64,000 nt of DNA from Candidatus Krumholzibacteriia bacterium. Lineage in GTDB: Bacteria; Krumholzibacteriota; Krumholzibacteriia; Krumholzibacteriales; Krumholzibacteriaceae. Numbering within the stretch: the stretch's first letter is position 1; each line of letters begins with the position of its first letter. The position numbers and the translations under genes are program-made. Below, one piece after another: positions 4,180 to 25,175 of the stretch. The DNA is taken from the NCBI GenBank assembly GCA_963836185.1, contig CAWIIQ010000003.1, positions 448,001 to 512,000 of the forward strand, in the 5' to 3' direction. The notes under the pieces were generated by a model. It had not been told where the DNA came from and did no database searches. It saw only the letters and a program-made list of their open reading frames with translations.

Positions 4180-4578
4180 TTGTCACTGAAACTACACGTC
4201 ATCCACGCGAAGGAATTCGTGCAGATGACACCTGAAGGCAAATACGACTTCGAGTCGACGCGGAAGATGCTTATCGAAGCGGTAGCGGCAAGCGCGAAGA
4301 GTCCGGATCACGAGATACTCCTGGACCTGAGAGGCGCGCGTGCCGATCTCAGCATGGTGGACGTCTATTACTTGGCAGCGGAACTGGACCGGAGCGACAC
4401 TGTATTCAAGGAGAGGATCGCGCTTCTTCTCACCCCGGAGCAGAAGTGGGACCAGGCAAAGTTCTTCGAGCTCTGCGCGGTCAACCGGGGACTCGACGTT
4501 GCCGCATTCAATTCGTACGAGGAAGCCATCAACTGGCTCTTCCCGTCTAGCGAGGTCAAGTCCGGGGATGACGGGTAA
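4180..4578 (+). CDS. STAS/SEC14-like (SpoIIAA-like) small protein
   Basis: ILLDLRGA, RIALLL, FFELCAVNRG and FNSYEEAINWL motifs. Confidence 0.7.
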   Translation: MSLKLHVIHAKEFVQMTPEGKYDFESTRKMLIEAVAASAKSPDHEILLDLRGARADLSMVDVYYLAAELDRSDTVFKERIALLLTPEQKWDQAKFFELCAVNRGLDVAAFNSYEEAINWLFPSSEVKSGDDG

Positions 4579-4634
4579 CTGAGTTCCTGCGATTTCCTGC
4601 TTCACGATAGTGAGAATCTCACTATATTTGATGT

Positions 4635-4877
4635 ATGAAGATCTCGATTTCAATACCTGACGTGCTTTTTCATGCTGCAGAGAAACTCATGAAACGGATG
4701 GGTGTGTCCAGAAGCGAATTCTATCAACGCGCAGTTCGTTCGTATATCGAGCAGCATCGCTCAGACAGAATTACCGAAGCACTTGATGTGCTTTACGGCT
4801 CCATCAACATGGAAAGTGGTGTTGATGCCGTAATACAGCAACTACAGGGCGCTTCTCTCTCGACAACGGATTGGTGA
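4635..4877 (+). CDS. Ribbon-helix-helix antitoxin (ChpI/MazE-like), no intact toxin downstream
   Basis: MKISISIPDVLF...MGVSRSEFYQRAV...ITEALDVLY...DW* pattern. Confidence 0.75.
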   Translation: MKISISIPDVLFHAAEKLMKRMGVSRSEFYQRAVRSYIEQHRSDRITEALDVLYGSINMESGVDAVIQQLQGASLSTTDW

Positions 4878-4916
4878 TCTGGTCGTTGCTGACCTGTTTG
4901 ACCGTCCGCGGACGAT

Positions 4917-6840
4917 CTATTTGACCAATATCGTCCGTCCGGCCTTGTCTTCCGCCTCAAGCAGCAGCGCACGCAGGTGCGGCCACCCTTCCGGCTCTAC
5001 CTTGCCGCCGGCCAGTGTCAGGCTGCGTTCTATTGTCACCCAGCCTTCATTCATCTCCACAGATATCGTGAAGCTTCCCGCCTCGTTCTTCAGTGAGCGG
5101 GCCTCAGGCAGGTGAAGGATGCTCTTCTTGCTTGCCTTTACGCGGACCTTCACCGTCTGCGACATCGCGCCGGGTATTATGACCGGCGATGTTCGCTGAG
5201 CATGATAGAGGTGGACATCGGCAGGGAGAACACCGGCGATACCACCGAGAGGGTCTCCGATCGTGATTCCCATGCGGCCGTGTCCGTCTGGCTCAGTTTT
5301 TTTCATCTCAAATTCGAAACCCGCAGCTACGTGAGTCTTCTCGAAGGCCGCCGGGTTGTATCCGGTCACTTCGGCGCCGGCAACGACCGATCCGGCGATC
5401 GCGTTGATCGCTGCTTTCGCCTCACCGCCGAGGCCGGTCATGTCTGCATACGGGCAGAAGATGCCGTCTGCGTCGAGATACCCCGTCCCCGTCCATCCCT
5501 CTTTGCCCGGTTCGAGAGTCATTGTGATATCGATCGAGCTCGGCCCGGCATCGGCCGGAGGATAGCTCCAGGGCGCGTCATCCGAGGCAGGTTTCCACGC
5601 CGTTCTGCCGAATACCGCGCGCGGTCCTTCCGAGAGTGTTCCCGCGGCAGGGTCATATATCGCCCTGAACGATCCGCTGTGAACACAGATCCTCATCTCG
5701 CCGAACCGGACGAGTCCCGGAAGGTCTGCGTCAACCCCGCTCGGTCCTGACGAGACCAGTACCGGCTCCGCTTTCAATCCCGCTTCACCGAACATCGCAG
5801 CGGCCAGCACGGCCCGGTCGAGTGCGTGCCCGTATGCAGTCTCATAGGTGCGTGATGCCGGGCGGGGAGAGAACTGCCAGTAGCGTGAATCGTAATGTAT
5901 GCTTCGGGTATACTTGTTGACGAGCTCGGCGACCTTTCTCGCCCTGGCCGCTTCACTCGGCTCGTGTTTCAGAGGTCCCCTGATCTTGTCTTTCAGTTCC
6001 GTGTCCGGGGTTGACCGCTTCGTCAAAGCTGGCCATGACCGCGTCTCTGACTGCTGCCCAGTCCGGCCAGGTCGACCAGGCCACTGCTGGCGCGTAGACC
6101 GCAGGATCGGCGATCCTCGGCGAACCGAGCCTGTCGAGGTTCTCCAGCGTGACAATATGGATCGCTTTACTGTCGCCTCCCGCTTCATCGGGAACGGGGG
6201 CGCCGTTGTATCCCTTGATCCGCAGGGTGACATCGTCGGGCAGGGTTATCTTCAGTTCGGCCTTCACGACAGGGTCCCTGCGCTGCATGACGAAGAATCC
6301 GTCGTGTCCGGTCGCTCCGGGCTGTTCCTCTATCTCGTAAGCGGTCTCCATGATGCATGGCAGCTCTACACCGTCGTGAAGGAGCATCGCCTCGCGCATC
6401 ATCGTGTAATCATCAGCGGTGGCGACGGCGCCGGGAAGGGTCTCGACGACCGCGGTCGGGCTCACCTTTGACTCGTGCGGCCACCACCTGCCCTCGCGCC
6501 AGGTCCTGAGAAGGTGCACCCTGAATGTCGAGACGGCCGAGTTCCAGGGGATCCTCAGGTCCGCGTGGTCGCGCAGCCCGGGCGGCGTTCCGATCCAGAC
6601 GACGCGGTGGACCGTTGTCCGTCGTCCGCCGTTTTCGAGGATCGTCTCGTGCCTGCTCTCGAGGAGCAGGATCGCGTCGTGCTTTGTGATGTCGAACTCT
6701 TTCTGAGCCTGCGACCAGAGGGCATCGAGGTCATGGCCGCGGGATGTGCCCATCGTCTCCGCGCCGGATGCGCCCGCCGCGGCGAGCGAAAGGAGGGCAA
6801 TGACGATCGCTGTTCTGATTGTATTCCGGTAGTTCATCAC
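4917..6840 (-). CDS. DUF3857/transglutaminase-like protein, probably catalytically inactive, frameshift near 6000
   Basis: ORFs 5953..6840 and 4917..6233 join into one gene; signal peptide; GHALDRA where the neighbour has GVCKD. Confidence 0.7.
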
Positions 6841-8919: not shown

Positions 8920-9936
8920 TCACAAAAATAGAAACGTAATAATAAAAAAAATAGCGAATACAGACGGGAAGAGTATTCTGGCGGCATTATCGAATTTCTC
9001 AGCCAGAGTATTATGTCCGTTGTCAGAGAGCGTACCTGTTGTCACAGCTTCTACCAGGGCGAGAAATACAAATGCCGTCGATCCCGTGATGAAGATGTCC
9101 ATCCTCGTCAGGTACGGGACCGGTGGAAGGACAGTGGCAATGGCGAACCTGTAGGCAATAAGTGTCAGCATTGATGTCGCAGCCATCGTCAACTGCGAGC
9201 CAAGATGATGCGGCTTCACGAAAAATACACTCCACGACATCATGACGATCAGGATCAGAGGTATGACGACGCTCCACACGTAATAGTTGGATTTTCTGCT
9301 GCCTTCCAACATGATCTCGAACTGCAGGAATTCCCTTCCGTCGAGAACACGGAATACTCCCGTTTTCGGAATAACATCTCCCAGGGTCCAGTTGGGTATA
9401 GAGAATACTTCGGCCCTGCTGATAGTCGCTTCTGTGAAAACGAGGTGAATATCTGACGGCGGATGATCGACCGTTCCCATAGTGATTCTGATAGTTCTTT
9501 TATCAAAGGGGAACTGGTGGATATCGGCTATTGTAGTGAAGATGCCCGTATAGCGCTGTTCGTATATGACAATTCCAGAATTGTCGATGCGCGCTACTTC
9601 AGGGAAGTGCTTCTTTACATCCCTCTGATTGAGAATCCGCAGGCGAGGGTTCCAGATGTCGGAAAGGGGGAGGGCGATCACTTTATTCTCATCGGGCCGG
9701 GTTAGCCTCGGGTCGTGCCACTCCAGGCGGATAGAAAAATCGGCCAGGAAAGTCTGTTCGTGGTCGTCTATCTTCGCGATGTCGATGACGTATAGTTCTA
9801 TGGTTACTTCGGTCGGCTCTCCATCGGTGCCTGGCCGTGCTATCATCCCCGCGTCGATATCGACCGCGGCAGAAGGTATTGTGATAGAAGCCGTAAGAAT
9901 GATCGTTAAAGCAGCGATTATAGTCAGTGTCTTCAT
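8920..9936 (-). CDS. Prokaryotic pentameric ligand-gated ion channel (GLIC/ELIC family)
   Basis: Signal peptide, WHDPRL, IWNPRL, Pro-loop FPFD, four TM helices with M2-M3 TSMLTLIAYRF..LPPVPYLTRMD. Confidence 0.9.
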   Translation of the reverse strand: MKTLTIIAALTIILTASITIPSAAVDIDAGMIARPGTDGEPTEVTIELYVIDIAKIDDHEQTFLADFSIRLEWHDPRLTRPDENKVIALPLSDIWNPRLRILNQRDVKKHFPEVARIDNSGIVIYEQRYTGIFTTIADIHQFPFDKRTIRITMGTVDHPPSDIHLVFTEATISRAEVFSIPNWTLGDVIPKTGVFRVLDGREFLQFEIMLEGSRKSNYYVWSVVIPLILIVMMSWSVFFVKPHHLGSQLTMAATSMLTLIAYRFAIATVLPPVPYLTRMDIFITGSTAFVFLALVEAVTTGTLSDNGHNTLAEKFDNAARILFPSVFAIFFIITFLFL

Positions 9937-10104
9937 GATATTGTTCCGCCTTGTAAATATGGTCATTGAAATCCGGGCGAGTATAACTGAAATCCCCGCC
10001 AAATTCCAGTATTCAGGGCAATCGGTCCTCACCACACCCGAAATCGTTGTTGTTGATATCGTGGACGGTATACGTGGTATAATCGCCCCATCCAGAGGAC
10101 TCAC

Positions 10105-12732
10105 ATGATAGGCAAAAACATATCTCACTATACGATACTCGAGGAGCTCGGGCGGGGTGGAATGGGTGTGGTCTACCTCGCCGAGGATACAAAGCTCGAC
10201 CGGACAGTTGCGCTTAAATTTCTCGCGTCACGCGCGATAGGCGGAGAAGAGGACAGGGCACGCTTTCTCCACGAAGCGAAGGCCGCGGCAGCGCTCAGCC
10301 ATCCGAACATATGCACGATCTACGAGGTCGACGAGGCTGACGGGCAGCCGTTCATCGCGATGCAGCATGTAACAGGGCAGGACCTCGGTGATCGTATAGC
10401 GCTGGGTCCTCTCAAGATAGATGCAGTTGTAGATATCGTTCTTCAGGCTGCCGCCGGTCTCCAGGATGCCCACGAGAAGGGGATCGTTCACCGCGACATC
10501 AAGCCGGCCAACATCATGATAAGCGACAAGGGCCGGGTGAAGATCATGGACTTCGGCCTGGCCAAGGCGCTCGGACGGACGATGCTGACGAGGGCCGACT
10601 CCACGCTGGGCACTTACGCGTACATGTCTCCTGAGCAGTCGAGGGGAGATGACGTCGACAGTCGAAGCGACATATGGTCGCTCGGTGTAGTCATGTACGA
10701 GATGATAACGGGCCGACAGCCGTTCAAGGGGGATTATGAGCAGGCTGTAGTCTACTCGATCATGAACGAGGAGCCGGAACCGTTGACTGCCCTTCGTACC
10801 GGAGTATCATTGGAGCTCGAGCGCATCGTCATGAAATGCCTGCGAAAGGATCCGGGCAGGAGATACCAGGGGATGGCGGATCTGATGGCCGACCTGAAGC
10901 AGGCCGGGGAGGGTTCCGGGAGGATTGCAGGACGGAAATCCGCCTCAAGGTCTCCTGTAGCTCGCTGGCCATGGATCGCCGCGGCCGTTCTGCTCGTCGT
11001 CTCGGTGGCATTGATCGGTCCGAAGATTATCCACAGGAATCAGGAAACAACACCTGTGGATACGAGGAAGATGCTCGTCGTGCTCCCCTTCGAGAACCTC
11101 GGCTCTCCCGATGACGAATATTTCGCCGACGGGATGGCTGAGGAGATCACAAGCCGCCTGGCGGTGGTGAGCGGCCTCGGTGTGATATCGCGCACAAGCG
11201 CTGTCCAGTACGACAGCGAGGGGAAGACGCTCCGTGAGATCGGAGAGGATCTTGGCGTCGATTACGTGCTTGAGGGAACGGTGCGCTGGAGCAAAGGCGC
11301 CGAGGGAGGTAACCGCGTCAGGGTCACTCCGCAGCTTATCCAGGTATCGGACGATACGCATCTCTGGGCGGAGACGTATGACAGGGTGCTGGAAGACATT
11401 TTCGCTGTTCAATCGGAGATCGCGGAGAAGATAATCGGGCAACTCGGCGTGAAGATGCTCGAGCGTGAACGTGAACTCATCGAAGCAAGACCCACCGAGA
11501 ACCTGCTCGCATATGAGACCTACCTGCGGGGTATCAACTATGCGCGGGGTGCGGGCGCTGTCGAGGAAAGATGGGAAAAGGCGGAGACCCTGCTGAAGCA
11601 GGCGACCGAACTCGATCCAGGATTTGCGCTGGCCTACGCGAGACTGTCGATAGTCCATTCCGAATTCTACTTCTGGGGATACGACAGGACATCCGGGCGC
11701 GTGGTCAAGGCAAAAGCTGCAGCTGATAAAGCCTGCGAGATAGACCCCGGCCTTCCCGAATGTTCTGCCGCTCTTGGCTCCTATTACTACATATGTCATC
11801 AGGATTTCGAAACAGCCCTGCATTACCACTCGATCGCGTTACGCAGCATGCCAAACAATCCGGAGGAGATCGAGGCGATCGCATATATCTGGCGACGACA
11901 GGGACTTTTCGAGGAGGCCCTCGAGTATCTAGAGAAGGCGGCTGTGCTTGCTCCCGGGCAGTACTGGTACCAGATGCAGATGGGAATTACGAATATGTTC
12001 CTGAGAAGATACGAAGAGGCGGACAGGCAATTCGTCCGCTCGCTTGAGCTCGAACCGGACCAGGTCGCGTCATATACGATGCGATGGATCAACGGGCTTC
12101 TCTGGACAGGAGATATTCCCAGATCCCGTGCGATACTTGAAGCGGCCCCTCAAGCGAGGTGGAATGAGCTGGCGGTGGGTTTCTACAGCCAGTGTATGGC
12201 GGAGAGGGATCCCGAGGGGGCTCTCAGGGAACTCAGGGTGATGCCTGAGACAGAGACTTACTTCTTTGGCAGGGATCTCACTGTCCGGCCTCTCCTCGAA
12301 GGATTAGCATACAGGATGATGGGTGACTCCTCCATGGCTCGCGAGCGATTCAGGTCGGCTGAGGTTATCCTGGAAGAACGGGCTGGTAATAGCGGAGGCG
12401 ACAGGGTGCTGGAAAGCACTGTCCGCAGTTCTCTCGGTAAGGCCTACGCCGGTCTCGGGCGAAAAGATGACGCTATCCGTGAGGGGCAGCGGGCCATTGA
12501 GCTTGTGAAATGGGACAAGCTTCTGTCGAAATACAGGATTTGGGATATGGCAGTCATATATATCATGGTCGGTGAATATGATGCGGCAATGGATAATCTC
12601 GAGCATCTTCTCTCTACGCCTGCCCTCGTTTCAGTTCCACACATTGTTGCCTCATCAATGGTCGATCCGATCCGCGAGCTTCCCCGTTACAAGAATATCA
12701 TCAGAAAGTACTCCGGGAGGGGCGGTTCATGA
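10105..12732 (+). CDS. Ser/Thr protein kinase with TM helix, TolB-N-like domain and TPRs
   Basis: GRGGMG, VALK, HRDIKPAN, DFG, YMSPE; VLPFENL...YFADGMAEEI domain; TPR helices. Confidence 0.95.
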   Translation: MIGKNISHYTILEELGRGGMGVVYLAEDTKLDRTVALKFLASRAIGGEEDRARFLHEAKAAAALSHPNICTIYEVDEADGQPFIAMQHVTGQDLGDRIALGPLKIDAVVDIVLQAAAGLQDAHEKGIVHRDIKPANIMISDKGRVKIMDFGLAKALGRTMLTRADSTLGTYAYMSPEQSRGDDVDSRSDIWSLGVVMYEMITGRQPFKGDYEQAVVYSIMNEEPEPLTALRTGVSLELERIVMKCLRKDPGRRYQGMADLMADLKQAGEGSGRIAGRKSASRSPVARWPWIAAAVLLVVSVALIGPKIIHRNQETTPVDTRKMLVVLPFENLGSPDDEYFADGMAEEITSRLAVVSGLGVISRTSAVQYDSEGKTLREIGEDLGVDYVLEGTVRWSKGAEGGNRVRVTPQLIQVSDDTHLWAETYDRVLEDIFAVQSEIAEKIIGQLGVKMLERERELIEARPTENLLAYETYLRGINYARGAGAVEERWEKAETLLKQATELDPGFALAYARLSIVHSEFYFWGYDRTSGRVVKAKAAADKACEIDPGLPECSAALGSYYYICHQDFETALHYHSIALRSMPNNPEEIEAIAYIWRRQGLFEEALEYLEKAAVLAPGQYWYQMQMGITNMFLRRYEEADRQFVRSLELEPDQVASYTMRWINGLLWTGDIPRSRAILEAAPQARWNELAVGFYSQCMAERDPEGALRELRVMPETETYFFGRDLTVRPLLEGLAYRMMGDSSMARERFRSAEVILEERAGNSGGDRVLESTVRSSLGKAYAGLGRKDDAIREGQRAIELVKWDKLLSKYRIWDMAVIYIMVGEYDAAMDNLEHLLSTPALVSVPHIVASSMVDPIRELPRYKNIIRKYSGRGGS

Positions 12733-14543: not shown

Positions 14544-15637
14544 ACGGAACACTCTTTATGACGGGAGTGACCGGGTATATAGGTTCGAGCCTTCTGCAGA
14601 AGTACCTCGATGAAACAGAGATGGAGATCGATCTTCTCGTCCGAGGCCGGCGCGAGAAGAGCCCGGGCGACAGGCTGGATGCAGTGTTGGCGGAGCTATA
14701 CCCCGGAGATGATACGGGGAGATACGCGGAGAGGATCAGGGTGCACGAGGGGGATCTCGCCTTTGAGAACCTCGGGCTCGACAAGAATGAATACAGCGAT
14801 CTCGCTTCACGGACCACGCGAATCATCCACTGCGCGGCGGCCGCCCGGTTCGATCTCGACCTGGAGGACGCGCGCTCGATCAATGTCGGAGGTACCCGCA
14901 ACATGCTCGATCTGGCGCAGTCGTGCACCGGCCTCGAGAAGTTCGACTATATAGGCACAGCATACGTTTCAGGCGGCAGGAACGGGCTTATCCTCGAGGA
15001 CGAACTCGACACCGGACAGGAGCACCGTAATACGTACGAGCGGAGCAAGATGGAAGCGGAGAAGGTCGTACGCGGACACTTCGGAGAACTGCCGATAACC
15101 GTCATGCGCCCCAGTATCGTGATCTGCGACTCGAAGACGGGCCGTGCTTCCGACTTCAACGGGTTCTACAGAGCGCTGCGGCTCTACTGGCACGGATTGA
15201 TGAAGATGCTCCCGGGCGATCCGTCGTGCCGGATGGATCTCGTTCCGGTCGATTACGTGACCGACGCAATATTTGCCCTTTCCGGAAGCGAGGCAAGTAT
15301 CGGCAGGGGGTATCATCTGACGACCGGGGCTGAAAAGGCTGCGACTCTTGCTGAGATCAGTGATCTGTCAGCCGAGCATTTTGGGCTGGATCCATTCACG
15401 ATAATCCCTCCCGAACATTTTCTCGCCGGGCTGTCGGCGAGAAAAAGTGAGCTGACCGATGACGAGAAACAGGCGGCGGAGGAACTGAAGCTGTACATGC
15501 CCTATCTCAGCACGAAGATGTCTTTCGACAATTCAGGCGCTGTCCGGGACGCCGGACTCGAACCACCGCCTGTAGGTGAGTACTTCGGCACGATGGCCCG
15601 CTATATCAAGGAGCGTGAGCCCCGGGGCCTCGCTTGA
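14540..15637 (+). CDS. Extended SDR thioester/fatty acyl-CoA reductase-like (NAD_binding_4)
   Basis: TGVTGYIG, IIHCAA, NTYERSK, RPSIV, LVPVDYV; ATGA overlap with ligase. Confidence 0.88.
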   Translation: MNGTLFMTGVTGYIGSSLLQKYLDETEMEIDLLVRGRREKSPGDRLDAVLAELYPGDDTGRYAERIRVHEGDLAFENLGLDKNEYSDLASRTTRIIHCAAAARFDLDLEDARSINVGGTRNMLDLAQSCTGLEKFDYIGTAYVSGGRNGLILEDELDTGQEHRNTYERSKMEAEKVVRGHFGELPITVMRPSIVICDSKTGRASDFNGFYRALRLYWHGLMKMLPGDPSCRMDLVPVDYVTDAIFALSGSEASIGRGYHLTTGAEKAATLAEISDLSAEHFGLDPFTIIPPEHFLAGLSARKSELTDDEKQAAEELKLYMPYLSTKMSFDNSGAVRDAGLEPPPVGEYFGTMARYIKEREPRGLA

Positions 15638-15704
15638 TCCGGAATGTCGACGGGCAGGACTTTTCCGGTACCTGCCTGAGAACACAACCTGTATAATCCG
15701 CTGC

Positions 15705-16853
15705 ATGACAGATAATGGACTTTCCGCGGCAAACGGTCCTGTCCGAGGCTTGAGCGTGACCGTGGTCACTATAATCTGCACGCTTTTCGTCTTCGTGCTG
15801 GCGCGCAGCGTCGATCCGATGACCTCGGACCATCCGGCGTTCGGCGCGGGCGGCGACCACCTGTACTATATCGCGATGGCTGAGGAGCCGGGCGGAGAGT
15901 ACCAGGCGCCATTCTGCTTTCGCGTGCTGACGCCGGCGCTGGCCAGGCTGATGCCATTCGGGACCGCCGACAGTTTCTATTTCCTCACAGTCATCTTTCT
16001 TGTCGGAACCGGCGTGCTCGCCTACTACATCGTTCTTGAGACGGCGAAAGACGGTTATCTCGCGCTGGCAGGTATTGCCATCTTCTATTCCCTCAGCGCC
16101 GCGGCGAAGTTCTGTCTCTACGATTTCTGGCTGACTGAACCGGCTCTCTTCTTCTTCAGCACGCTCGCCGTGCTTCTACTGCTGAAAAACCATGACATAT
16201 GGCTCAGTGTCGCGCTTGCCGTCGCCGTTCTTGCCAAGGAGAGCGCGCTATTTCTCATTCCGCTCGTCTATGCGGTCAGGGCGGAGAGTCTCTTTGACAG
16301 GAAGGCTGCGGTTCGCGCTCTGGCAGTGGCCGTCCTGCCTGTCATCGTCTATCTCGGTGTCCGGATGGTGGTGCCGTCGCTCCCGCAGTCATCTCCGGCC
16401 GAACTTTTCAGGGTGGTCGGCCTCGCGCGGTTGATCGAAGGCCTGGCAGGTTTCCTTCGCGGCGGCACGGTGGGAACGTGGGGAGTCCTGATACCGGCCC
16501 TGATCCTGCTTTCGGGAAAGAAGGGGGGCAGGATCCTGCTGCGCGCACTGCCGTTCCTTATCCTCGTCTACATCCAGCCCCTGTTCGCGAAGAATGTAGA
16601 CCGGCTTCTCGTCTTTGCATTCATAGCAATGATCCCTGCCTCCGTGGAGGGATTACGCAGGATGACAGACCGGTTTCTGCTTTCACGATGGATGGCGGGC
16701 GGATTCATCATCATCCCATTCATCCTTACCGCGCTGAAGAGCGGATACAACCCCCCCAGCCCCGAGCAGCAGCTCGCCGTGCTGGCTGGATGGACCACGA
16801 TCGTCGCGATATCTGTCTCCGTGAGGAAAAAGAAAACGGGACTCGAACCCTGA
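15705..16853 (+). CDS. Polytopic membrane protein, GT-C glycosyltransferase-like
   Basis: First loop GDHLYYIAMA...APFCFRVLTP, TEP and LAKES motifs, many TM helices. Confidence 0.6.
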   Translation: MTDNGLSAANGPVRGLSVTVVTIICTLFVFVLARSVDPMTSDHPAFGAGGDHLYYIAMAEEPGGEYQAPFCFRVLTPALARLMPFGTADSFYFLTVIFLVGTGVLAYYIVLETAKDGYLALAGIAIFYSLSAAAKFCLYDFWLTEPALFFFSTLAVLLLLKNHDIWLSVALAVAVLAKESALFLIPLVYAVRAESLFDRKAAVRALAVAVLPVIVYLGVRMVVPSLPQSSPAELFRVVGLARLIEGLAGFLRGGTVGTWGVLIPALILLSGKKGGRILLRALPFLILVYIQPLFAKNVDRLLVFAFIAMIPASVEGLRRMTDRFLLSRWMAGGFIIIPFILTALKSGYNPPSPEQQLAVLAGWTTIVAISVSVRKKKTGLEP

Positions 16854-16918
16854 GGTCCGGCCCCGTTTTCCCTGAAGACTCATGTTCTTCAGCAGGAACA
16901 ACGCGATACAGCCAGGTG

Positions 16919-17878
16919 CTATTTCTTGATCTTCGCTCTGCCCGTACCTGTACTTATCTCTATCTTCCTCGCGCCGCTTCCCTTTGTGAACCATTTCCGG
17001 ATGTACGTTTCGTCGTTGCGCTCGTACTCTTCCTCGTCCTCAAAATCGAAAGAGGATGATATCTTGCCGTCCCGTTTTCTTGCCGACATCACGACGTGCG
17101 CGTCCAGGTCGGAGCCTCCGCATTCGATGGTGGCCCTGCCTGTCCCCGAGCTTATCTCGAGTTCGTAGGATTCCCCTTCGGGGAGGTCGATCGTGGCATT
17201 TCCCGTTCCGGACGAGAACTCACCAAAATCCTTCAGCGCCAGGCCGGACGCTTCGACGTGGCCCGTTCCTGAATTCGCGTCGAAATCACCCTTTGAGTTG
17301 CTGATCTCTACATCGCCCGTTCCTGAGGAGGCATCGAAGTTTCCGTCCGCGTCTTTGACAGTGACATCGCCGGTGCCGGAGCTGAGCTCGAATTCACCAT
17401 CGGCATCCGACAATATGATATCACCTGTGCCGCTGCTCGCTTCGATGTCGCCTTTGAATCCCGAGATGACGATCGAGCCAGTTCCTGAACTGGCATCCAG
17501 TTCTCCGCTGAGCCCGGAAGCTTTCAATCCGCCGGTAGCGGAACTGAACTCTATTTCGATTCCTTTGGGCACAACGATGACCCATTCCGACTCGCCCTTG
17601 ACATCATTTCCATCGATGTCTTCCTCGACTGACAGGGAGCCGCCCCTCTCCTTGAACTTAACCTCGAACTCGTCGTCATCGTACGTGTACTCGACGCGGA
17701 TCTGGATGTCGCTTCCGCTGCCCTGCTTGATGACGCAGTCGCCGAGAACGGTCTTCACCTTCAGCGTCTCGACCCGGTCGAACGTCTTCTCGATCACCTT
17801 CGCCTTTTTCGCGAAAGCGGCCGATGACAGTGAGCATACGATCATGACGAGCACGAGTATCCCCAGAGTCCTTTTCAT
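16919..17878 (-). CDS. DUF4097-like beta-strand repeat protein
   Basis: Signal peptide; about 19-aa repeats with (A/S)SSGTGxxx. Confidence 0.85.
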   Translation of the reverse strand: MKRTLGILVLVMIVCSLSSAAFAKKAKVIEKTFDRVETLKVKTVLGDCVIKQGSGSDIQIRVEYTYDDDEFEVKFKERGGSLSVEEDIDGNDVKGESEWVIVVPKGIEIEFSSATGGLKASGLSGELDASSGTGSIVISGFKGDIEASSGTGDIILSDADGEFELSSGTGDVTVKDADGNFDASSGTGDVEISNSKGDFDANSGTGHVEASGLALKDFGEFSSGTGNATIDLPEGESYELEISSGTGRATIECGGSDLDAHVVMSARKRDGKISSSFDFEDEEEYERNDETYIRKWFTKGSGARKIEISTGTGRAKIKK

Positions 17879-18069
17879 CGCTCCTCCTTCTGTGAGCGTA
17901 AATTTCCGGATACGCAATACAGCCACATATATAGGTACGAAGCAGGAGGGATCCTGTTGCACAGGAAAAGTGGAATCATTGGATATTGTTGATTATAAGA
18001 GAGATAAAGGCGGTGGGTGCCGCCGGCCGCTCACGTCTGACCGGCAGCAATGTCGCAGATCATCGCTGA

Positions 18070-18507
18070 TCAGTCTTTCAGGTCCCACCATCCATACCAG
18101 TTGACGTAGATGATCACTTTCTGATCCATAACATCGTTTCCGTCGAACATCTGTTTTTCCCAGGCGTACTCCGCGCCGAGGGATCCCGAGAGACCGGATG
18201 CCACGAAGGTATCCAGTGATATTCCAAGTGTCGGGCCCATGAGGTTGTTCCACGGCAATCCTTCGGTATCCCACTTGAAACGCAGCTTCGCGTAGGTGTT
18301 CAATGACGTGTTGCCCCACTTGCCCCAGTCGAGGCCCTGTTTGATCCAGCCGTCAAGCACGAGGTTCTCAACACCTTCCTTCGGAATCTCATACCTCAGC
18401 TCACCCCAGGAAGCTCCGCGCAGTCCCGCGATCTCCGCACGTGCTCCTCCGGTGCCGGCCACCATCATGAGCAGCAGCACCAGAATTCCACCGATAAACC
18501 GGTTCAT
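18070..18507 (-). CDS. Small secreted Trp-rich protein, probable outer-membrane beta-barrel
   Basis: AAGGAG RBS, signal peptide ending ARA, alternating strands, terminal YVNWYGWWDLKD. Confidence 0.6.
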   Translation of the reverse strand: MNRFIGGILVLLLMMVAGTGGARAEIAGLRGASWGELRYEIPKEGVENLVLDGWIKQGLDWGKWGNTSLNTYAKLRFKWDTEGLPWNNLMGPTLGISLDTFVASGLSGSLGAEYAWEKQMFDGNDVMDQKVIIYVNWYGWWDLKD

Positions 18508-18509
18508 TG

Positions 18510-19919
18510 TTATCTCCTTCCGAAAACCAGGGCGTGTGTCTCGCCCCACGAATGCTCAATAGTAAAATCCTCGAGCAGCCTGCAGTCACCATCCAGGATG
18601 TCCCGGAAGCTCTCGCTCGGGTATTGCTTCCCGTAGTAATCGTCCTCGCAGATGACGAAATCGACCCGCTTGTCGAGTCTGCGTGCATCCTCGTCGCCGC
18701 GGATGAACCACGTTATATGGTCGAACCTCGCACCGGGATATTTCGACTCGAGGGCGTATTCGTACATGACTCCGTCCCAGCCGTTCGTCGCGACGGTCAT
18801 GCCGTCAAATCCGTTGTACATGAGGTATTCGATGACGGGACTGACGTCGGGGTGCTGCTTCTCGAGCCACCTGAGGTTGTTGATCCCGTATGCCCACACG
18901 ACGGTGACGACAGAAACGGTGAAGAAGACCTTCACCGCGCGGCTCGTCTCACGCATCGAGAAGAGGTGCGCTATGTGGTCTATTCCCATCGCGCCGGCGG
19001 GGGCGAGGAAGAGCAGGGCGAATACGACATTCTTGTTCACCGATGCCTCTGCCCTCGTGATAATGTGAATAAGGAGAATCGGCATCGAGGCGAGTATAAG
19101 CAGGGCGGCAAGATGCCTGTACCTCTCGTGAAAGAGGCCGAAGGCGGCGAGCAGGTAAGCGAGCGAGAGCCAGCGGAAGGTCCAGTCGAATATCGTCGCC
19201 AACGGCATATTCGAGGCCTCCCTGGCATTCTCGATCTGGTAGATCACCTGCGGATTCGGTGGATATGGAGTAAGCCAGAAAAAGAGTGTCATGAATATGG
19301 TCAGCGGCGCGAGTCCGAAGAGGACCGACTTCATCGCGCCGTGCCTCAGGATGACATATATCAGGAACGCGGGAATGAATACCGGCAGAAGGTACTTCGT
19401 TATCGCCGCGAGGCAGAGCAGGATCGTCGCCGTGACCAGTGCCGCCGCCTCGAATCCGGCCGAGCCGGCCTTGTGAGCTGCGACCGTCATAAGCAGGGCC
19501 CCTCCGAGGAAGAGGGCCGCCGTCATGTCGTATGTCGCCAGTTTCATCAGGTAGAGGGCCTGTCCGGAGAACATGAATATCGCGGCTGCCAGCAGTCCGA
19601 GGTCCCTGCCGGCGAGCATCCTCGTCGCTAGGTATATACAGCCGGTAAGCATCAGCCCCAGGATGATGTTCATCATCCTGGCGCCGTAGAGCCCGCCGAA
19701 CGAGTCGCCGAACGAGGCGAACAGCGGCCACGTCATCACCGACCCGGTATGTGCGGGGCAGCCGGGGCAGTATTCGCCGGCGACGAGCTGGCGCCCCATC
19801 ACGATGTGATAAGCCTCGTCGACGAAGACCGAGTTATAGTCGAGCTTCACCAGGCTGATCACAAGGCCGTAGGCGAGGATGCCGCCAAGGAGGATGTAAT
19901 GTATCCTTCGCGATCTCAT
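18510..19919 (-). CDS. GT-C superfamily (PMT/ArnT-like) glycosyltransferase
   Basis: FVDEAYH acidic motif after TM1, LATYD, ITKY, multiple TM helices; TAATG overlap with upstream GT2. Confidence 0.85.
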   Translation of the reverse strand: MRSRRIHYILLGGILAYGLVISLVKLDYNSVFVDEAYHIVMGRQLVAGEYCPGCPAHTGSVMTWPLFASFGDSFGGLYGARMMNIILGLMLTGCIYLATRMLAGRDLGLLAAAIFMFSGQALYLMKLATYDMTAALFLGGALLMTVAAHKAGSAGFEAAALVTATILLCLAAITKYLLPVFIPAFLIYVILRHGAMKSVLFGLAPLTIFMTLFFWLTPYPPNPQVIYQIENAREASNMPLATIFDWTFRWLSLAYLLAAFGLFHERYRHLAALLILASMPILLIHIITRAEASVNKNVVFALLFLAPAGAMGIDHIAHLFSMRETSRAVKVFFTVSVVTVVWAYGINNLRWLEKQHPDVSPVIEYLMYNGFDGMTVATNGWDGVMYEYALESKYPGARFDHITWFIRGDEDARRLDKRVDFVICEDDYYGKQYPSESFRDILDGDCRLLEDFTIEHSWGETHALVFGRR

Positions 19920-22132
19920 TATTCCACCAGCTCCTCGATCTGGTCGGCGATCATCACGAGATACTTCGCCGACTCGCTGTGCGGCTTGTCGAATTCGATT
20001 CCCATAAGGGCCTCGGGGAAGTCCTCGACCGGCAGAAGGGTCGTGCGGGCGACTTTACCCTCGATATCGATTATGTCCTGGCCGACGATGACCCTCATCT
20101 TCACCGGGTCGCCCGGTTCGACGGGGATCTCGGTGGCGATCATGCAGCCCGTCTCAGATACGTTTCTGATAGCCGAGTATCGCGGTTTCCTGTCGCCGTT
20201 CGTAACGACGGCGGGCAGCCAGGCCCGGACCCTCCGCGCCCTCTCGGGAATCTCCTCATCCTTCTTCAGTCGCCTGTCGAGGTATGTCTCGTATCTCGTC
20301 GAGTACTCGCTGAGAAACTTCGATACCGATGACGCTGAGAGGTAACGGGTGAGGCGGTCCCTTCGTGCTCGCGGCATGCCGTTGAGCTTTATGCCGAGCC
20401 TCGATGCGAGGTGGCCGTTAGCTTTGACCGTTCTGCTGTGCGTGATGTAGCCTTCCGTCTCGATGTTGCCGCCGGGCAGGATCAACTCGAGGCCGATCTT
20501 CCTGACGGCCGGAGCCTTATCGAGCGTCATTATAGAGATGCCCTCGTGTGTGAGGTTGTCGGCGACGGCGATCCGTTTCTCTCTGCCCTCGCCGTTCTCG
20601 TAGCGGTAGAACATCGGAACGTTGTCGGCGATCCGGAAATTCTCCCTCTTCTGGGAGAACTTCTTCCGCGCGTACTGTATGATCCCTATCCCCAGGCCGG
20701 TGTTGTAGAGGGCCCAGAGACTGTTGACTGCGATTATGAATTCGTCGCTCCGCTCGCCGAGCAGCAGGAAGGTAAGGGCCCAGACGATAGCGGTGATGCT
20801 TACGAGCACTACGACTATCTGCGGTATCAGATACCTTCCGGACGATCCACCGCTTCCCTTCGGCGTGACCGCGAACTTCCGCGACCGTTTCGGCATCAGG
20901 AAGGCGAAGAGCGAACTGAGGTATGTGATGAACTTGCCCATGCTGAACTGCTCGAGCAGCAGGTTCCCCCCGAATCCGCGTCCCATCTCATTGAAGGCGA
21001 ATATCGATATCGCGTAGTACGGTATGAAATGGAGGAGGTACTTTATATCGATCGCGTGCATCGGCAAGACGCCTGTGAACAGGATTATCGGCGGAGTGAC
21101 GTAGAAGACAAGCTTCTGGAATCCCTCGAAAGGATAGATCAGGCTCGCCAGGTAACAGAGGCGCTGCGGAAAGCTCAGCCCCTTTATGAAGAGGGGATTA
21201 GCCTTGAAGAAGACCTGCCAGCCGCCGAGCCCCCAGCGGCGCCGCTGGATGTGGAATGGCACGATCGTTTCGGCGGCGATACCGTAGGCGAGCGGTTCGT
21301 TGTGATAGACCGATCCCCACCCTTCCGACTGCAGCCTGATCGAGGTCATCATGTCCTCGGTGATCGAGTCGGTGGCGAAGCCGTCGATGTCGTCGAGCGC
21401 CTTCCTGCGGATGATCGCGCACGTGCCGACGAAGTAGGCGGCGTTCCAGTGATCCCTGCCGGGCTGGATGATGTAGTAGAAGAGCCCCTGCTCGGCCCAG
21501 ATGTATTTCTTCTCGGGAGCTACCCGGTGCTGGAACGAGTCGATATTGTAGAACTCCTGGGGCGCCTGCGCGAATCCGAGCTCGTCATCCTCGAAGTACC
21601 CGAGCAGGCGGTCGATGAAATGGGGCAGTGGGGCATGGTCGGCGTCGAATACCGCGACGAACTCCGCCTCGGAATGCTCGAGGCCGAAGTTGAGGTTTCC
21701 CGCTTTTGCGTTCTCGTGTTCCTCTCGGGCGAGGTATATGCAGCCGAGCTCCTCGCAGAGCTCGACGACTTCGTCGCGGCCGCCGTCGTCGAGGACGAGG
21801 GTCCTGTGGGGATATTTCAGGTCGTTGCAGGCGAGCAGGGTCTTACGTAGTACCTCGACCGGTTCGTTGATCGTCGGTATAAGGACGTCGACCGTCCTGT
21901 CCTCGAGCGGTTCGGGGGCCTCGCGCGTCTTCGGTTTCCAGACAGTGAAGTAGAAGAGGATCGTTGTGAAGAAGCCGAAGACTTCGGCGCACCAGAGCGA
22001 CCACGAGAAGAAGAGAGCGTTCGGATTGAACGTCTCTGTGACTCGCCAGTACAGGTAGTAGATCGTTACGGCGACCGCCAGTACGGCTATGACACGCCTG
22101 AAGCGTTCGCCTTTAAGGTTCCTGAAGTCCAT
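19919..22132 (-). CDS. Cellulose-synthase-like processive GT2 with two PilZ domains (BcsA-like)
   Basis: DDG, AKAGNLN, FDADH, TED, QRRRW; PilZ1 RENFR...NLTHEG; PilZ2 RARR..RVR...NVSETG. Confidence 0.9.
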   Translation of the reverse strand: MDFRNLKGERFRRVIAVLAVAVTIYYLYWRVTETFNPNALFFSWSLWCAEVFGFFTTILFYFTVWKPKTREAPEPLEDRTVDVLIPTINEPVEVLRKTLLACNDLKYPHRTLVLDDGGRDEVVELCEELGCIYLAREEHENAKAGNLNFGLEHSEAEFVAVFDADHAPLPHFIDRLLGYFEDDELGFAQAPQEFYNIDSFQHRVAPEKKYIWAEQGLFYYIIQPGRDHWNAAYFVGTCAIIRRKALDDIDGFATDSITEDMMTSIRLQSEGWGSVYHNEPLAYGIAAETIVPFHIQRRRWGLGGWQVFFKANPLFIKGLSFPQRLCYLASLIYPFEGFQKLVFYVTPPIILFTGVLPMHAIDIKYLLHFIPYYAISIFAFNEMGRGFGGNLLLEQFSMGKFITYLSSLFAFLMPKRSRKFAVTPKGSGGSSGRYLIPQIVVVLVSITAIVWALTFLLLGERSDEFIIAVNSLWALYNTGLGIGIIQYARKKFSQKRENFRIADNVPMFYRYENGEGREKRIAVADNLTHEGISIMTLDKAPAVRKIGLELILPGGNIETEGYITHSRTVKANGHLASRLGIKLNGMPRARRDRLTRYLSASSVSKFLSEYSTRYETYLDRRLKKDEEIPERARRVRAWLPAVVTNGDRKPRYSAIRNVSETGCMIATEIPVEPGDPVKMRVIVGQDIIDIEGKVARTTLLPVEDFPEALMGIEFDKPHSESAKYLVMIADQIEELVE

Positions 22133-22312
22133 GGCACAGATGCTCGTCTATTGAAGTATGACCTCAGGTCAGGGGGCAATTGAAAACTGCGAGATTCCCG
22201 TTGCGGCCCTGGACCCAATTGTTCGAACAACACCGTTCCCATTCGTGTGGGAACATGTCATAATTATACCATAGATCAACTGGTTATAACAATAGACGAG
22301 GAGGCGTAACGA

Positions 22313-22879
22313 ATGGCTGAACGTGTATGTCCATGGTGGATGGGGTACTTCCTCATGACTCCGTTCAGAAAATTAATCGAAAATCCCCGGAAAATCCTCT
22401 CTCCATTCGTGAAAAAGGGGATGAAAGTCCTCGAACCGGGGTGCGGGATGGGTTTTTTCACTATCGAGGCGGCCAGGCTGACAGGGCCGGAAGGCAGGGT
22501 CTACGCCGTCGATCTGCAGGAGAAGATGATCAGTGCCCTCGAGCGCCGTGTGCGCAGGGCGAAGATGTCAGATGTCATCGAGGCGAGGGTCTGCCCGGCC
22601 GATACGATGGATGTCGGTGACCTGGACGGATCGATCGACCTCGTCCTCGCCTTCTGCCTCGTTCACGAGGTGCCCGATGCTGACAGGCTCTTCAGGGAGT
22701 TCCGGCAGGCGCTGAAGTCCGATGGATGCTGTCTTGTAATCGAGCCACCAGGGCATGTCACGGAGGAGGCTTTCGAGGTGACGCTTGAAACTGCCCGAGC
22801 GGCTGGATTTACCATCAGCCCGGGGCCGGATTTAGGGAAGAACCTTACGGCTGTGCTGGAGCTGGAGATCGGGGAGTAA
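22313..22879 (+). CDS. Class I SAM-dependent methyltransferase
   Basis: VLEPGCGMGFF, YAVDLQ, HEVPD. Confidence 0.9.
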   Translation: MAERVCPWWMGYFLMTPFRKLIENPRKILSPFVKKGMKVLEPGCGMGFFTIEAARLTGPEGRVYAVDLQEKMISALERRVRRAKMSDVIEARVCPADTMDVGDLDGSIDLVLAFCLVHEVPDADRLFREFRQALKSDGCCLVIEPPGHVTEEAFEVTLETARAAGFTISPGPDLGKNLTAVLELEIGE

Positions 22880-22880
22880 G

Positions 22881-23954
22881 ATGGATCTGGAAATACTTGG
22901 TTGGGATTCGCAGTTAAGCGCTGCATTCGAGGCATATCAGGGGGATGACTATGTCCCTTTGCGGGTAACAAGGGATAATCGAAACATATATTCGGCCATC
23001 GGTGAATCTGGCGAATACTGGTGTGAAGTTTCCGGCAAATTCAGGTATGGCACCGGGGAAAAGAGCGGTTATCCCGTTGTCGGTGACTGGGTGGCAGTAA
23101 CGACACGGCCAGATGAAAAGAAAGCCACCATTCACGCGATACTCCCCAGAAAAAACAGGTTCAGCAGGAAAGTGGCCGGCGAAGTCACAGACGAACAGGT
23201 GATCGCCACAAATATCGACACTGTATTTATTGTTACCGGGTTGGATGAAAACTACAACCTGAGGCGGATCGAACGATATCTTTCGGTCGCCTGGGACAGC
23301 GGGATCATCCCTGTTATCCTTTTGAATAAATCTGATCTTTGCCCCGAGTACGATGCCCGGGTGAATGAAGTCGAATCGATCGCGATCGGAACGGACGTGC
23401 TGGCTGTCAGCGCGCTGGAATCAACAGGAATAGATTGCCTGGATAAGTATATCAGGAAAGGGAAGACCGTAGCCTTTTTAGGATCATCCGGAGTGGGGAA
23501 ATCGACGATAATCAACTCACTTCTCGGCACCGAATATATGAAGGTCAACGAAGTGAATGAAACGGGAAGCAGGGGGCGGCATACTACTACCCACCGTGAA
23601 CTTATAGTCCTGCCGGACGGGGGAATGGTGATCGATACTCCCGGTATGCGTGAGTTGCAGGTCTGGGGTGATGAAGACGGGTTGAGACAGGTATTCGAAG
23701 ATATTGAACGCCTGGCGGAATCCTGTCAGTTCCGGGACTGTAATCATGAAGCCGAACCGGGCTGCGCGGTGCGGGAAGCCCTGGAGACCAATACACTGTC
23801 AGCTGAACGATTCGAAAGTTATCTGAAACTGAAAAAGGAATACGAATATCTGGCAAGCAGGCAGACGATGAAACCAAGCGCGATCGAGAAAGCTAAATGG
23901 AAAGACATCAAGATATTTGCCAGGCATATCAAGAACCGGGATAAACACAGATAG
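22881..23954 (+). CDS. rsgA: Ribosome small subunit-dependent GTPase A
   Basis: Circularly permuted GTPase NKSD, GSSGVGKS, GRHTT, DTPG; Zn finger CQFRDCNHEAEPGC. Confidence 0.97.
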   Translation: MDLEILGWDSQLSAAFEAYQGDDYVPLRVTRDNRNIYSAIGESGEYWCEVSGKFRYGTGEKSGYPVVGDWVAVTTRPDEKKATIHAILPRKNRFSRKVAGEVTDEQVIATNIDTVFIVTGLDENYNLRRIERYLSVAWDSGIIPVILLNKSDLCPEYDARVNEVESIAIGTDVLAVSALESTGIDCLDKYIRKGKTVAFLGSSGVGKSTIINSLLGTEYMKVNEVNETGSRGRHTTTHRELIVLPDGGMVIDTPGMRELQVWGDEDGLRQVFEDIERLAESCQFRDCNHEAEPGCAVREALETNTLSAERFESYLKLKKEYEYLASRQTMKPSAIEKAKWKDIKIFARHIKNRDKHR

Positions 23955-23975
23955 AATCGGATTCGTGTAGGATTG

Positions 23976-25175
23976 TCAGCGATCCGGACCGAGGAGATGC
24001 CCGTCGAAGTCGAACTGGAAGTTCATGTAGAGGATGTCGTCGTCGATATCTGACTCGAATTCGTTTGTTGCCTGCTTGCTGACGTAATTGAGCTGGAGCC
24101 TCAGGTGTTCCATAGGTGACCAGTTGATCCCCGCTGTCCAGTCATCCTGTATCGTCTCGTTTCCATCCTGTCCAGACTCGCTGACAAACCGGTCGAATCT
24201 CACGGCCAGCTCAAGACGGCCCTTGAATAGCGGCCAGACCCCCTGAATCCCCCATCCCGAGTAGTCATAGAGGTATTGAACGGCATCGAAGTAGTCGTCC
24301 ATCTCACCGGCGCCGTAGAATCCGTAGAGCCGCGGCGCGTGCTCGTGCCCGATTGCGATGTCGGCCGACCATACCTTCCGGTCGATATCCATCACCGGCC
24401 CGCGGTCGCCGAGCAGAACGTCGCTGTGGCTGTTGTAGCTCGCGTGAAAGCCAGCGGTAAGCCAGTGAGTAGGATCGAACTCGAGCCGTCCCCCGTAGTA
24501 CATGTCGCCAAACGAATTGGTGTAGAGGAACTCCTCATTCTCACGCCCCCCGATATACCTGTTGGCGCCCATCCCGTTTCCCGCCATCAGGAACCACCGG
24601 ATCTCCCACTGCCTGCCGCCCGGATACGCTCCCTTGATGGCAAGCCCGAGGTCCCTGTCGTACGACTTCGCTGACATGACCGAAGATATGTAGGGGGTCC
24701 TGGTCATCGAATAGTCCCCGACCCTCCTGCCGAATGTCGTCCTCGACGCGAAATCGAGATCGTTATAGGCAGTGAGCACCTCGGCGGTCGAGGGAAACTT
24801 CATCTGCCCGATATACAGCCTGAAATACTCGGCAGGGAGCCAGCCGCCGTAGAAATCGACGACATCTGTCCTCTCCTCGAGCCGGATCCGCAGGAGGAGC
24901 TGGAGGTCGCCCTTCGGGGATCCGAGGATGAATGCGATACGGCCGTGCCTGAAGGCGAATCCGGAGGCATAGCTGTCAGCCTGGTCCCCGCTTCCCGGCT
25001 GGACCAGTCCGTTCTGGACCTGCTCGTAGATCGTCCACCAGAAACTCGCCGTCGCTTCCATGTCGAGGGTCGGGGATGAACCCGCGTCCTCATCCGCCGC
25101 TGCCGGACAGGGAAGGGCCGCCTGGAGCAGCAGGGCTGCCAGGACAGGTATAAGATATGAACGCACATTTATCAT
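23976..25175 (-). CDS. Porin (OprO/OprP-like outer-membrane beta-barrel)
   Basis: Signal peptide, IGQMKFP, DRDLG, YYGGRLEF, LAVRFD, TAGINW, LQLNY. Confidence 0.75.
   Translation of the reverse strand: MINVRSYLIPVLAALLLQAALPCPAAADEDAGSSPTLDMEATASFWWTIYEQVQNGLVQPGSGDQADSYASGFAFRHGRIAFILGSPKGDLQLLLRIRLEERTDVVDFYGGWLPAEYFRLYIGQMKFPSTAEVLTAYNDLDFASRTTFGRRVGDYSMTRTPYISSVMSAKSYDRDLGLAIKGAYPGGRQWEIRWFLMAGNGMGANRYIGGRENEEFLYTNSFGDMYYGGRLEFDPTHWLTAGFHASYNSHSDVLLGDRGPVMDIDRKVWSADIAIGHEHAPRLYGFYGAGEMDDYFDAVQYLYDYSGWGIQGVWPLFKGRLELAVRFDRFVSESGQDGNETIQDDWTAGINWSPMEHLRLQLNYVSKQATNEFESDIDDDILYMNFQFDFDGHLLGPDR

Follow-up and report, generated by a model that had tools for sequence, protein, structure and literature searches.

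The closest described systems are the bacterial cellulose synthesis (Bcs) complexes. In the available part of PMC8892547, six helices constitute the minimal synthase core, the BcsB anchor sits in the groove of transmembrane helices (TM) 1–3 of BcsA, and a latch between E371 and R580 holds the gating loop of BcsA; the same part describes a Thermosynechococcus cellulose system with HlyD- and TolC-like partners. A bcsABZC operon of Thermodesulfovibrio is annotated in the accessible part of PMC5165239. Here we analyze a three-gene locus of a Candidatus Krumholzibacteriia bacterium (assembly GCA_963836185.1), located on the minus strand of a 64,000-nucleotide stretch of contig CAWIIQ010000003.1 (positions 448,001 to 512,000), hereafter the window, in whose coordinates features are given. 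The locus encodes a BcsA-like family 2 glycosyltransferase (GT2), a membrane glycosyltransferase of the GT-C type and a small protein predicted to form one half of an outer-membrane β-barrel. The three proteins would make, decorate and export a cellulose-like glucan without BcsB or BcsC: β-glucan synthesis gated by cyclic di-GMP (c-di-GMP), glycosylation by the GT-C in the periplasm, and export through a homodimeric barrel of 2 × 6 strands. We assign this reading a probability of roughly 55%. The features of the locus are:

19919..22132, minus strand: BcsA-like processive GT2 synthase, 737 aa (open reading frame (ORF) call and profile matches)
21233..21247, minus strand: QRRRW motif of the GT2, Q296–W300 (motif reading)
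20339..20653, minus strand: first PilZ domain of the GT2 (PilZ1), about residues 494–598 (alignment and motif reading)
19964..20242, minus strand: second PilZ domain of the GT2 (PilZ2), residues 631–723 (Pfam match and motif reading)
18510..19919, minus strand: GT-C (PMT/ArnT-like) membrane glycosyltransferase, 469 aa, about 10 predicted TM helices
18070..18507, minus strand: ORF of the small protein, 145 aa counted from the ATG
18439..18507, minus strand: signal-peptide-like N-terminus of the small protein, residues 1–23, ending A-R-A (read by eye from the sequence)
18070..18438, minus strand: mature amphipathic six-strand half barrel, 122 aa (AlphaFold2 model and residue faces)

The three genes are conserved and inherited together as a unit. 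The small protein has matches in 37 of the 208 genomes of its phylum (Candidatus Krumholzibacteriota) and is present in 35 of the 42 other genomes of the host's family, and a GT-C profile (E ≤ 1e-30) matches the identical 37 genomes. Loci were fetched from 30 of the 36 other genomes, with the GT2 cut by a contig end in two, and the order GT2, GT-C, small protein is kept in 30/30 while the flanks vary. Outside this phylum, Nitrospirota and Geobacteraceae have the triplet too (loci L085, L094, L098, L128, L129 and L145). There BcsG follows it in L094, L128 and L129, whereas in L085, L098 and L145 a CDP-alcohol phosphatidyltransferase comes next, together with a HAD phosphatase. A tree of GT2 cores (20 rows) unites the 10 GT-C-linked enzymes in a single clade (99/99), in which the Krumholzibacteria are nested inside the other GT-C-linked enzymes; because the root is a midpoint root, the tree does not settle which way transfer went.

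An initial annotation, made from the sequence of the window, had described a tight operon with no BcsB, BcsC or BcsZ nearby and had suggested looking for the triplet in other genomes and for bcsB, bcsC and bcsZ elsewhere in this one. Both junctions are seen in the sequence: GT2 and GT-C overlap at TAATG, and a 2-nt gap separates GT-C from the small protein (TAA-CA-ATG, with GGAGA upstream). The first search recovered the triplet as described above, and the second extended the absence to the whole host genome (G000; 3.5 Mb, 92.5% complete). BcsB was found in 0/43 family genomes and tblastn with two BcsB proteins was also negative in the host genome, while the BcsC barrel family (BCSC_C) was found in 0/43 family genomes in a search that did not cover BcsK. 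Family search and tblastn revealed neither BcsZ of family GH8 (other glucanase families being outside the search) nor BcsG (with a query from related operons) in the host genome. The host genome contains three GGDEF matches, one of them partial, and 14 matches to Omp85-family proteins.

The half-barrel exporter family to which the small protein belongs is the most surprising part of the finding. The codon differences between the small protein and five congeners are mostly at third positions, which indicates a real gene. Its mature form comprises 122 residues with 10 Trp, in keeping with the Trp-rich mature protein of about 120 residues that had been annotated. The AlphaFold2 monomer consists of six antiparallel strands with a predicted local distance difference test score (pLDDT) of 85, and all six alternate a hydrophobic face with a polar/aromatic face, the latter formed by R7, W11, W31, N47, Y49, R53, D57, E90, Y111, Y115 and W117 (mature numbering). 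Six strands fall below the at least eight required of a single-chain outer-membrane β-barrel, eight being the smallest such barrel according to the available part of PMC6340704. With only six strands in the model, the idea of an eight-strand barrel made by one monomer was dropped. The initial annotation had proposed a mini β-barrel, perhaps oligomeric, as an outer-membrane partner and AlphaFold models of monomer and oligomer to examine it: a partner role and an oligomer are likely, whereas the monomer is a six-strand half barrel rather than a mini-barrel, and a three-copy model pairs head to tail. That the protein is not a membrane barrel at all would have undone the proposal; its amphipathic strands, and the outer-membrane barrels matched by the tandem form described below, speak otherwise. 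None of the three refuting conditions named in the initial annotation (no conservation of the triplet, partner bcsB/bcsC genes elsewhere, no membrane barrel) was borne out.

The fold matches of a single unit are middling segments of barrels (best Z 9.3; no Foldseek match at E ≤ 0.001), no Pfam, NCBIfam or PDB sequence family matches the protein, and no aromatic residue ends its chain, features that would suit a soluble or membrane-associated β-sheet protein that binds carbohydrate and forms no outer-membrane channel. Such a role is very improbable given the alternating faces of all six strands, the 87 Foldseek matches of the tandem at E ≤ 0.001, of which those listed are outer-membrane barrels, and the placement of the units behind tetratricopeptide repeats (TPRs), where the BcsC barrel otherwise stands. 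In the Atlas, unnamed clusters rank first, and PagL/OMP families serve as leads only. Other leads were the barrel families BcsS, YaiO, NfrA_C and DUF481, whose profiles gave no match to the small protein in the Pfam/NCBIfam sequence scan; across the same type of scan DUF481 matched weakly in 4/31 orthologues and 1/130 representatives. Long open frames in L041 and L051, considered as GT-C–barrel fusions, are overlapping frames.

A HMMER scan identified 366 clusters of the half-barrel unit (family representatives at 50% identity). The best 150 of the 366 representatives divide into 93 two-unit and 57 one-unit proteins, without a single three-unit case, counts to be read knowing that the HMMER ranking favors two-unit proteins and that some single-unit entries may be fragments; all 13 of the longer homologues have exactly two units. 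Units were found in 17/301 sampled genomes of the Nitrospirota phylum and 4/251 of the Geobacteraceae class, and five genomes among these samples encode two units in one ORF. In L129 a two-unit protein lies within a GT2–GT-C triplet. In L137 and L146, a long TPR protein that ends in two units is encoded between bcsZ and bcsG of bcsA-B-Z-G operons and fills the BcsC slot, and in L140 the bare two-unit form lies downstream of bcsA-B-Z-G. The tree of units (61 rows) places two-unit forms in several clades beside single-unit forms, and the two halves of one protein group together in L129 (99/76), L140 (97/90), P0185 (94/79) and P0195 (91/81). This pattern suggests repeated duplication that halted at two units.

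Two further observations concern two-unit loci. An unannotated gene of 317–331 aa lies between bcsA and bcsB (L137:6127-7122 and L146:6698-7651) and has a distant homologue in G000 at C3:518290, outside the window. Elsewhere, two-unit barrels are fused to LysM, AMIN or SPOR (P0254, P0255, P0261, P0266; P0231, P0241; P0134, P0158), peptidoglycan-associated modules that stand where TPRs otherwise sit.

The natural tandem of L129 was modeled as 12 strands with a pLDDT of 79 (from 12 sequences). Its best matches are BrkA (Z score of 12.6, root-mean-square deviation (rmsd) of 5.1 Å over 207 aligned residues), PcoB (Z 12.2) and VhGalP (Z 11.7), and the top matches overall comprise autotransporter barrels, PcoB and an oligogalacturonate porin with Z scores of 11–12.6 and rmsd of 3.7–5.1 Å. 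The barrels of BrkA, PcoB and VhGalP are ones that we take to be 12-stranded. A complex of three copies of the small protein was modeled with a score of 0.75, compared with 0.01 for the best control. The mark applied to this score is reached by 20/30 solved pairs and 1/23 single chains, a calibration that holds for two copies only. Contacts agree by at least 95% between runs, partner pLDDT is at least 73, and the interface joins β1 (residues 3–21) of one copy to β6 (105–121) of the next. The three-copy model supports head-to-tail pairing, not any stoichiometry.

Two copies would close a 2 × 6 barrel through the same head-to-tail β1–β6 pairing, with a lumen that is aromatic and charged. The small protein is very probably the exporter, and it quite probably acts as a dimer; a trimer was the initial guess and is now disfavored. 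The passing score of the three-copy model and the 16–18 strands of known synthase-dependent porins would also accommodate a larger ring, in which the exporter role is right and three or four units form 18 or 24 strands, the two-unit proteins pairing to give 24. Such a ring is unlikely. Three units in one chain were never seen in the 150 representatives or the 13 longer homologues, 18 strands are impossible from two-unit proteins, the third seam of the trimer model is not confident, and the tandem on its own best matches 12-stranded barrels.

The genomic surroundings of the half-barrel unit connect it to polysaccharide synthases. A co-oriented GT2 with a QxxRW motif lies within 8 kb of the unit at 59/66 loci (30/30 in Krumholzibacteria, 20/23 in Nitrospirota/Desulfobacterota and 9/13 in metagenome or viral sets), a total that omits the duplicate contigs L154, L164, L165, L166 and L168 as well as L162, which had no scorable unit. 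As a background, the same GT2 profile finds one GT2 in the host genome. The seven loci without a GT2 comprise two in which it is cut at the contig end, three contigs of <4 kb (on one of which BcsG adjoins the unit), one contig ending near the gene, and L139. The partner synthases vary and include BcsA types, short chitin/hyaluronan-type GT2s and a fusion of GH18, deacetylase and GT2. The thread common to the half-barrel family would be export of a synthase-made polysaccharide.

Six IMG/VR contigs, scanned with a narrow unit alignment, carry a single half-barrel unit. The unit stands directly behind a short GT2 in L163, L164 and L167 and in the metagenome copies L156 and L157, often with a deacetylase near. 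The phage-type cassette comprises a short chitin/hyaluronan-like GT2 and the single half barrel, to which a polysaccharide deacetylase, a conserved 112–116-aa protein and a small Pro-rich membrane protein are often added (L156:5847-8080, L157:5841-8846, L163:5913-8865, L164:277-1820 and L167:5824-7468; also L150, L151 and L153); a capsid gene lies near the cassette in L167. These cassettes suggest phage-encoded secretion of a host-surface polysaccharide. One single-unit protein searched against GenBank phages and one two-unit protein searched against plasmids gave no match.

The synthase of the triplet carries DDG, DADH, TED and QRRRW, corresponding to the D, DxD, TED and QxxRW set of BcsA and confirming that all processive motifs are present, as annotated. 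Its alignment with E. coli BcsA (E 4e-78) begins at residue 192 of BcsA, and the protein starts at the TM3-equivalent helix, TM1–2 being absent. The two extra N-terminal helices are absent from 10/10 GT-C-linked GT2s and present in 4/4 BcsB-linked ones; the other six BcsB-less GT2s examined have 0–2 extra hydrophobic segments. The GT2 thus corresponds to a minimal BcsA core from which the BcsB-docking helices are missing. A BcsB-independent synthase would make a β-glucan and push the chain through its own membrane channel, and the product moved in this way is probably a β-1,4-glucan.

The elements of c-di-GMP control are retained. The gating loop is kept as FxVTPK (F420–K425), and E288, conserved in at least 90% of orthologues, lies eight residues before Q296, matching the E371-to-Q379 spacing of R. 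sphaeroides BcsA. By the motif definitions in the available part of bioRxiv 814665, PilZ1 contains R496-x-x-x-R500 and [D/N]-h-T528-x-x-G531, with Thr instead of Ser, and R496, R500, T528 and G531 are invariant in 29/29 orthologues. Because E288 and R496 lie at matching offsets and are conserved, we infer gating at PilZ1, where c-di-GMP would very probably open the E288–R496 latch and free the gating loop, as in BcsA. PilZ2 keeps N657-V-S659-x-x-G662, and its conserved arginine motif, R631-x-x-R634, is one residue short of the canonical RxxxR; a few orthologues carry an additional Arg upstream. Pfam scores just PilZ2 in this GT2; NCBIfam TIGR02266 marks two stretches in it, and Pfam PilZ marks two in the orthologues L094 and L098. 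Both tandem PilZ domains of the initial annotation are indeed present, but only PilZ1 has the canonical motif pair. Tandem PilZ proteins usually combine one canonical and one degenerate domain, as stated in the available part of bioRxiv 2020.02.11.943704. From its motifs, PilZ2 probably serves as a partner domain that binds c-di-GMP weakly or not at all.

A double PilZ is also found without any GT-C in the BcsB-less synthases L130-132, L134, L135 and L138; it tracks BcsB loss generally, not GT-C presence. In L130, L131, L132, L134 and L138, both PilZ domains of these synthases keep RxxxR, and a single half barrel adjoins, with or without BcsG and without GT-C, as a two- or three-gene system.

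The GT-C has about ten predicted TM helices followed by a C-terminal soluble domain, and an acidic DE motif (D34–E35) lies after TM1. Residues E35, R81 and D131 are invariant in 36/36 sequences. The Pfam match of this protein is weak (PMT_2, E 4e-5, below cut-off), its orthologues pass the cut-off (PMT, E 1e-9) and its nearest Atlas clusters are PMT_2/ArnT, so that the annotated PMT/ArnT-like identity holds on both motif and profile; the GT-C profile had no match among PDB sequences. BcsG is a polymer-modifying enzyme. In parallel to it, the GT-C would branch the nascent chain in the periplasm using a lipid-phosphate sugar and may double as the membrane partner of the synthase, a role that we consider slightly favored.

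PMT/ArnT-type GT-Cs glycosylate proteins and lipids. This activity, and the PMT_2/ArnT nature of the nearest Atlas clusters, would fit a GT-C that does not branch the polymer but transfers a sugar, such as a short glucan, to an acceptor lipid or protein and so anchors a surface glycan; the triplet is also without a hydrolase or TPR bridge, and the CDP-alcohol phosphatidyltransferase/HAD pair that follows it in three loci hints at lipid chemistry. Acceptor transfer is nonetheless improbable, because the GT2 retains the channel helices and QxxRW of self-translocating synthases, BcsG shares the operon in the close relatives L094, L128 and L129, and the pair was not found in the window's own genome (G000). 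Decoration of the polymer is favored by BcsG in relatives' operons together with the synthase's own channel, and the transfer to a lipid or protein that had also been proposed initially does not appear supported over it. The pair itself (L085:2226-3538, L098:8401-9686 and L145:295-1606) occupies the position where BcsG is absent in triplets outside Krumholzibacteria (3 loci), and may supply a lipid donor.

Several observations weigh against the proposed pathway. The GT2 misses the NCBIfam CelA cut-off (398 vs 699 bits) and that of PRK11498 (322 vs 992). The BcsB-less double-PilZ synthases without GT-C imply that the GT-C is dispensable for BcsB independence. The operon contains no sugar-donor gene, the GtrA flippase was not found in the host genome, and D34 is replaced in 2/5 GT-Cs from outside Krumholzibacteria (L094 and L128). 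Partial erosion of the DE motif and the missing donor gene, together with translational coupling to a GT2 without TM1–2, are what a mainly structural GT-C would predict, one that replaces BcsB and leaves the polymer unmodified as cellulose or a mixed-linkage glucan. We regard this alternative as a slim prospect, as E35, R81, D131 and others are invariant in 36/36, and L130 and L131 likewise are without TM1–2 yet have no GT-C.

For the export step of the proposed pathway, the triplet has no TPR bridge or hydrolase for the chain's crossing of the periplasm. The C-terminus of the small protein, WWDLKD, has no terminal aromatic residue, in which substrates of the β-barrel assembly machinery (BAM) typically end. 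Ring closure of the L129 tandem is inferred from fold matches at rmsd of 3.7–5.1 Å, not from coordinates, and the complex model had three copies, with one run at 0.02 (the others at 0.75 and 0.76) and two of three interfaces confident. The BcsC barrel has 16 strands; a 12-strand pore is narrower and could be tight for a branched glucan. Finally, many of the 66 loci come from kin, so that they do not count as independent observations, and L139, whose two-unit barrel (4528-5310) has no GT2 beside it, is a genuine exception.

If the proposal is correct, dimerisation of a 122-residue chain into a pore of 12 strands is a new outer-membrane barrel architecture and, because one-unit and fused two-unit forms coexist today, a direct test case for the long-held view that single-chain barrels descend from homo-oligomers of smaller units. 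For BAM the question becomes how two half barrels are inserted and closed, and the size of the small protein makes it easy to express and test. Glycobiology would gain a three-gene, BcsB-free secretion system, in which GT-C branching is a possible third decoration of bacterial cellulose, by glycosyl branches, beside phosphoethanolamine and acetyl groups. The presence of this pore on phage contigs suggests that phages drive the formation of surface polysaccharides on their hosts. More tentatively, with the odds somewhat against the statement as a whole, the small protein may found an unnamed family of export pores (at least 366 clusters at 50% identity) that form a 2 × 6 homodimer, were repeatedly fused into a full barrel and serve cellulose- and chitin/hyaluronan-type GT2s in bacteria and phages, here exporting a GT-C-branched, c-di-GMP-controlled glucan with three proteins.

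Around the operon, a sigma-70-like site lies upstream (window 22292-22263, minus strand) and a 5-bp GC hairpin downstream (18024-18009, minus strand), with promoter-like sites (4 vs 1.9 expected) and terminator-like sites (4 vs 3.0) near chance; Rfam gave no match within window positions 16000-24000. The region 15576-16853 (plus strand) encodes another multi-pass membrane protein, which follows an AMP-binding enzyme and an NAD-dependent reductase. It has a weak match (E 1.2e-8), below cut-off, to the AZOBR_p60025 cell-surface glycopolymer family and is present at just 4/31 loci compared. At 8920-10128 (minus strand) lies a homologue of pentameric ligand-gated ion channels (PF02931 and PF02932).

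The literature searched contains no description of the triplet, of a 2 × 6 barrel or of a bcs operon that includes a GT-C, although such loci could be listed in operon tables or in subscription papers. Like the Thermosynechococcus system (available part of PMC8892547), the triplet has a synthase that needs neither BcsB nor BcsC; it differs in an operon without the HlyD/TolC pair or a glucanase, in another exporter family and in the added GT-C. With ArnT/PMT GT-Cs (PF13231/PF02366), the GT-C shares the DE motif after TM1, about ten TM helices and the C-terminal soluble domain, but it belongs to an orthologous group of its own that is linked to a processive synthase, and it has no PDB sequence match.

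The YadA barrel is assembled from three chains of four strands each, 12 in total (available part of PMC6340704). As in YadA-like barrels, several chains of the small protein would complete one 12-stranded barrel, and the features of a multi-chain barrel, amphipathic strands and head-to-tail self-pairing, are both predicted here. The arrangement here is a predicted 2 × 6 with one-unit and fused two-unit forms extant, and the partners are polysaccharide synthases, not adhesins. We know of no solved 2 × 6 barrel. The KdgM/NanC/VhGalP porins and autotransporter barrels are the best fold matches of the two-unit form and have a similarly aromatic, charged lumen, whereas they are single chains with import or protein-secretion roles and about 7–11% identity; a PDB sequence search detected no relation of the small protein to 12-stranded porins or autotransporters.

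The triplet shares with the Bcs systems (E. coli BcsA-B-Z-C-G; R. sphaeroides BcsAB; PDB 7lby and 4p00) the BcsA-type GT2 motifs, the gating loop and a canonical PilZ. It differs in having no BcsB, BcsC, BcsZ or BcsG found in the genome, in a synthase with a second PilZ and without TM1–2, in the GT-C as a fixed partner, and in a 122-aa half barrel as the exporter compared with the TPRs and large barrel of BcsC; with no BcsB, BcsC or BcsZ, it lies outside Bcs types I–III. Nonetheless, relatives of the triplet share operons with BcsG, BcsB and BcsZ, which makes it a variant of synthase-dependent secretion and not an unrelated pathway. Of the undescribed c-di-GMP-gated pathway envisaged in the initial annotation, the kept gating elements and the lack of a published description stand, whereas the separate pathway gives way to a Bcs variant that is real, conserved and apparently undescribed.

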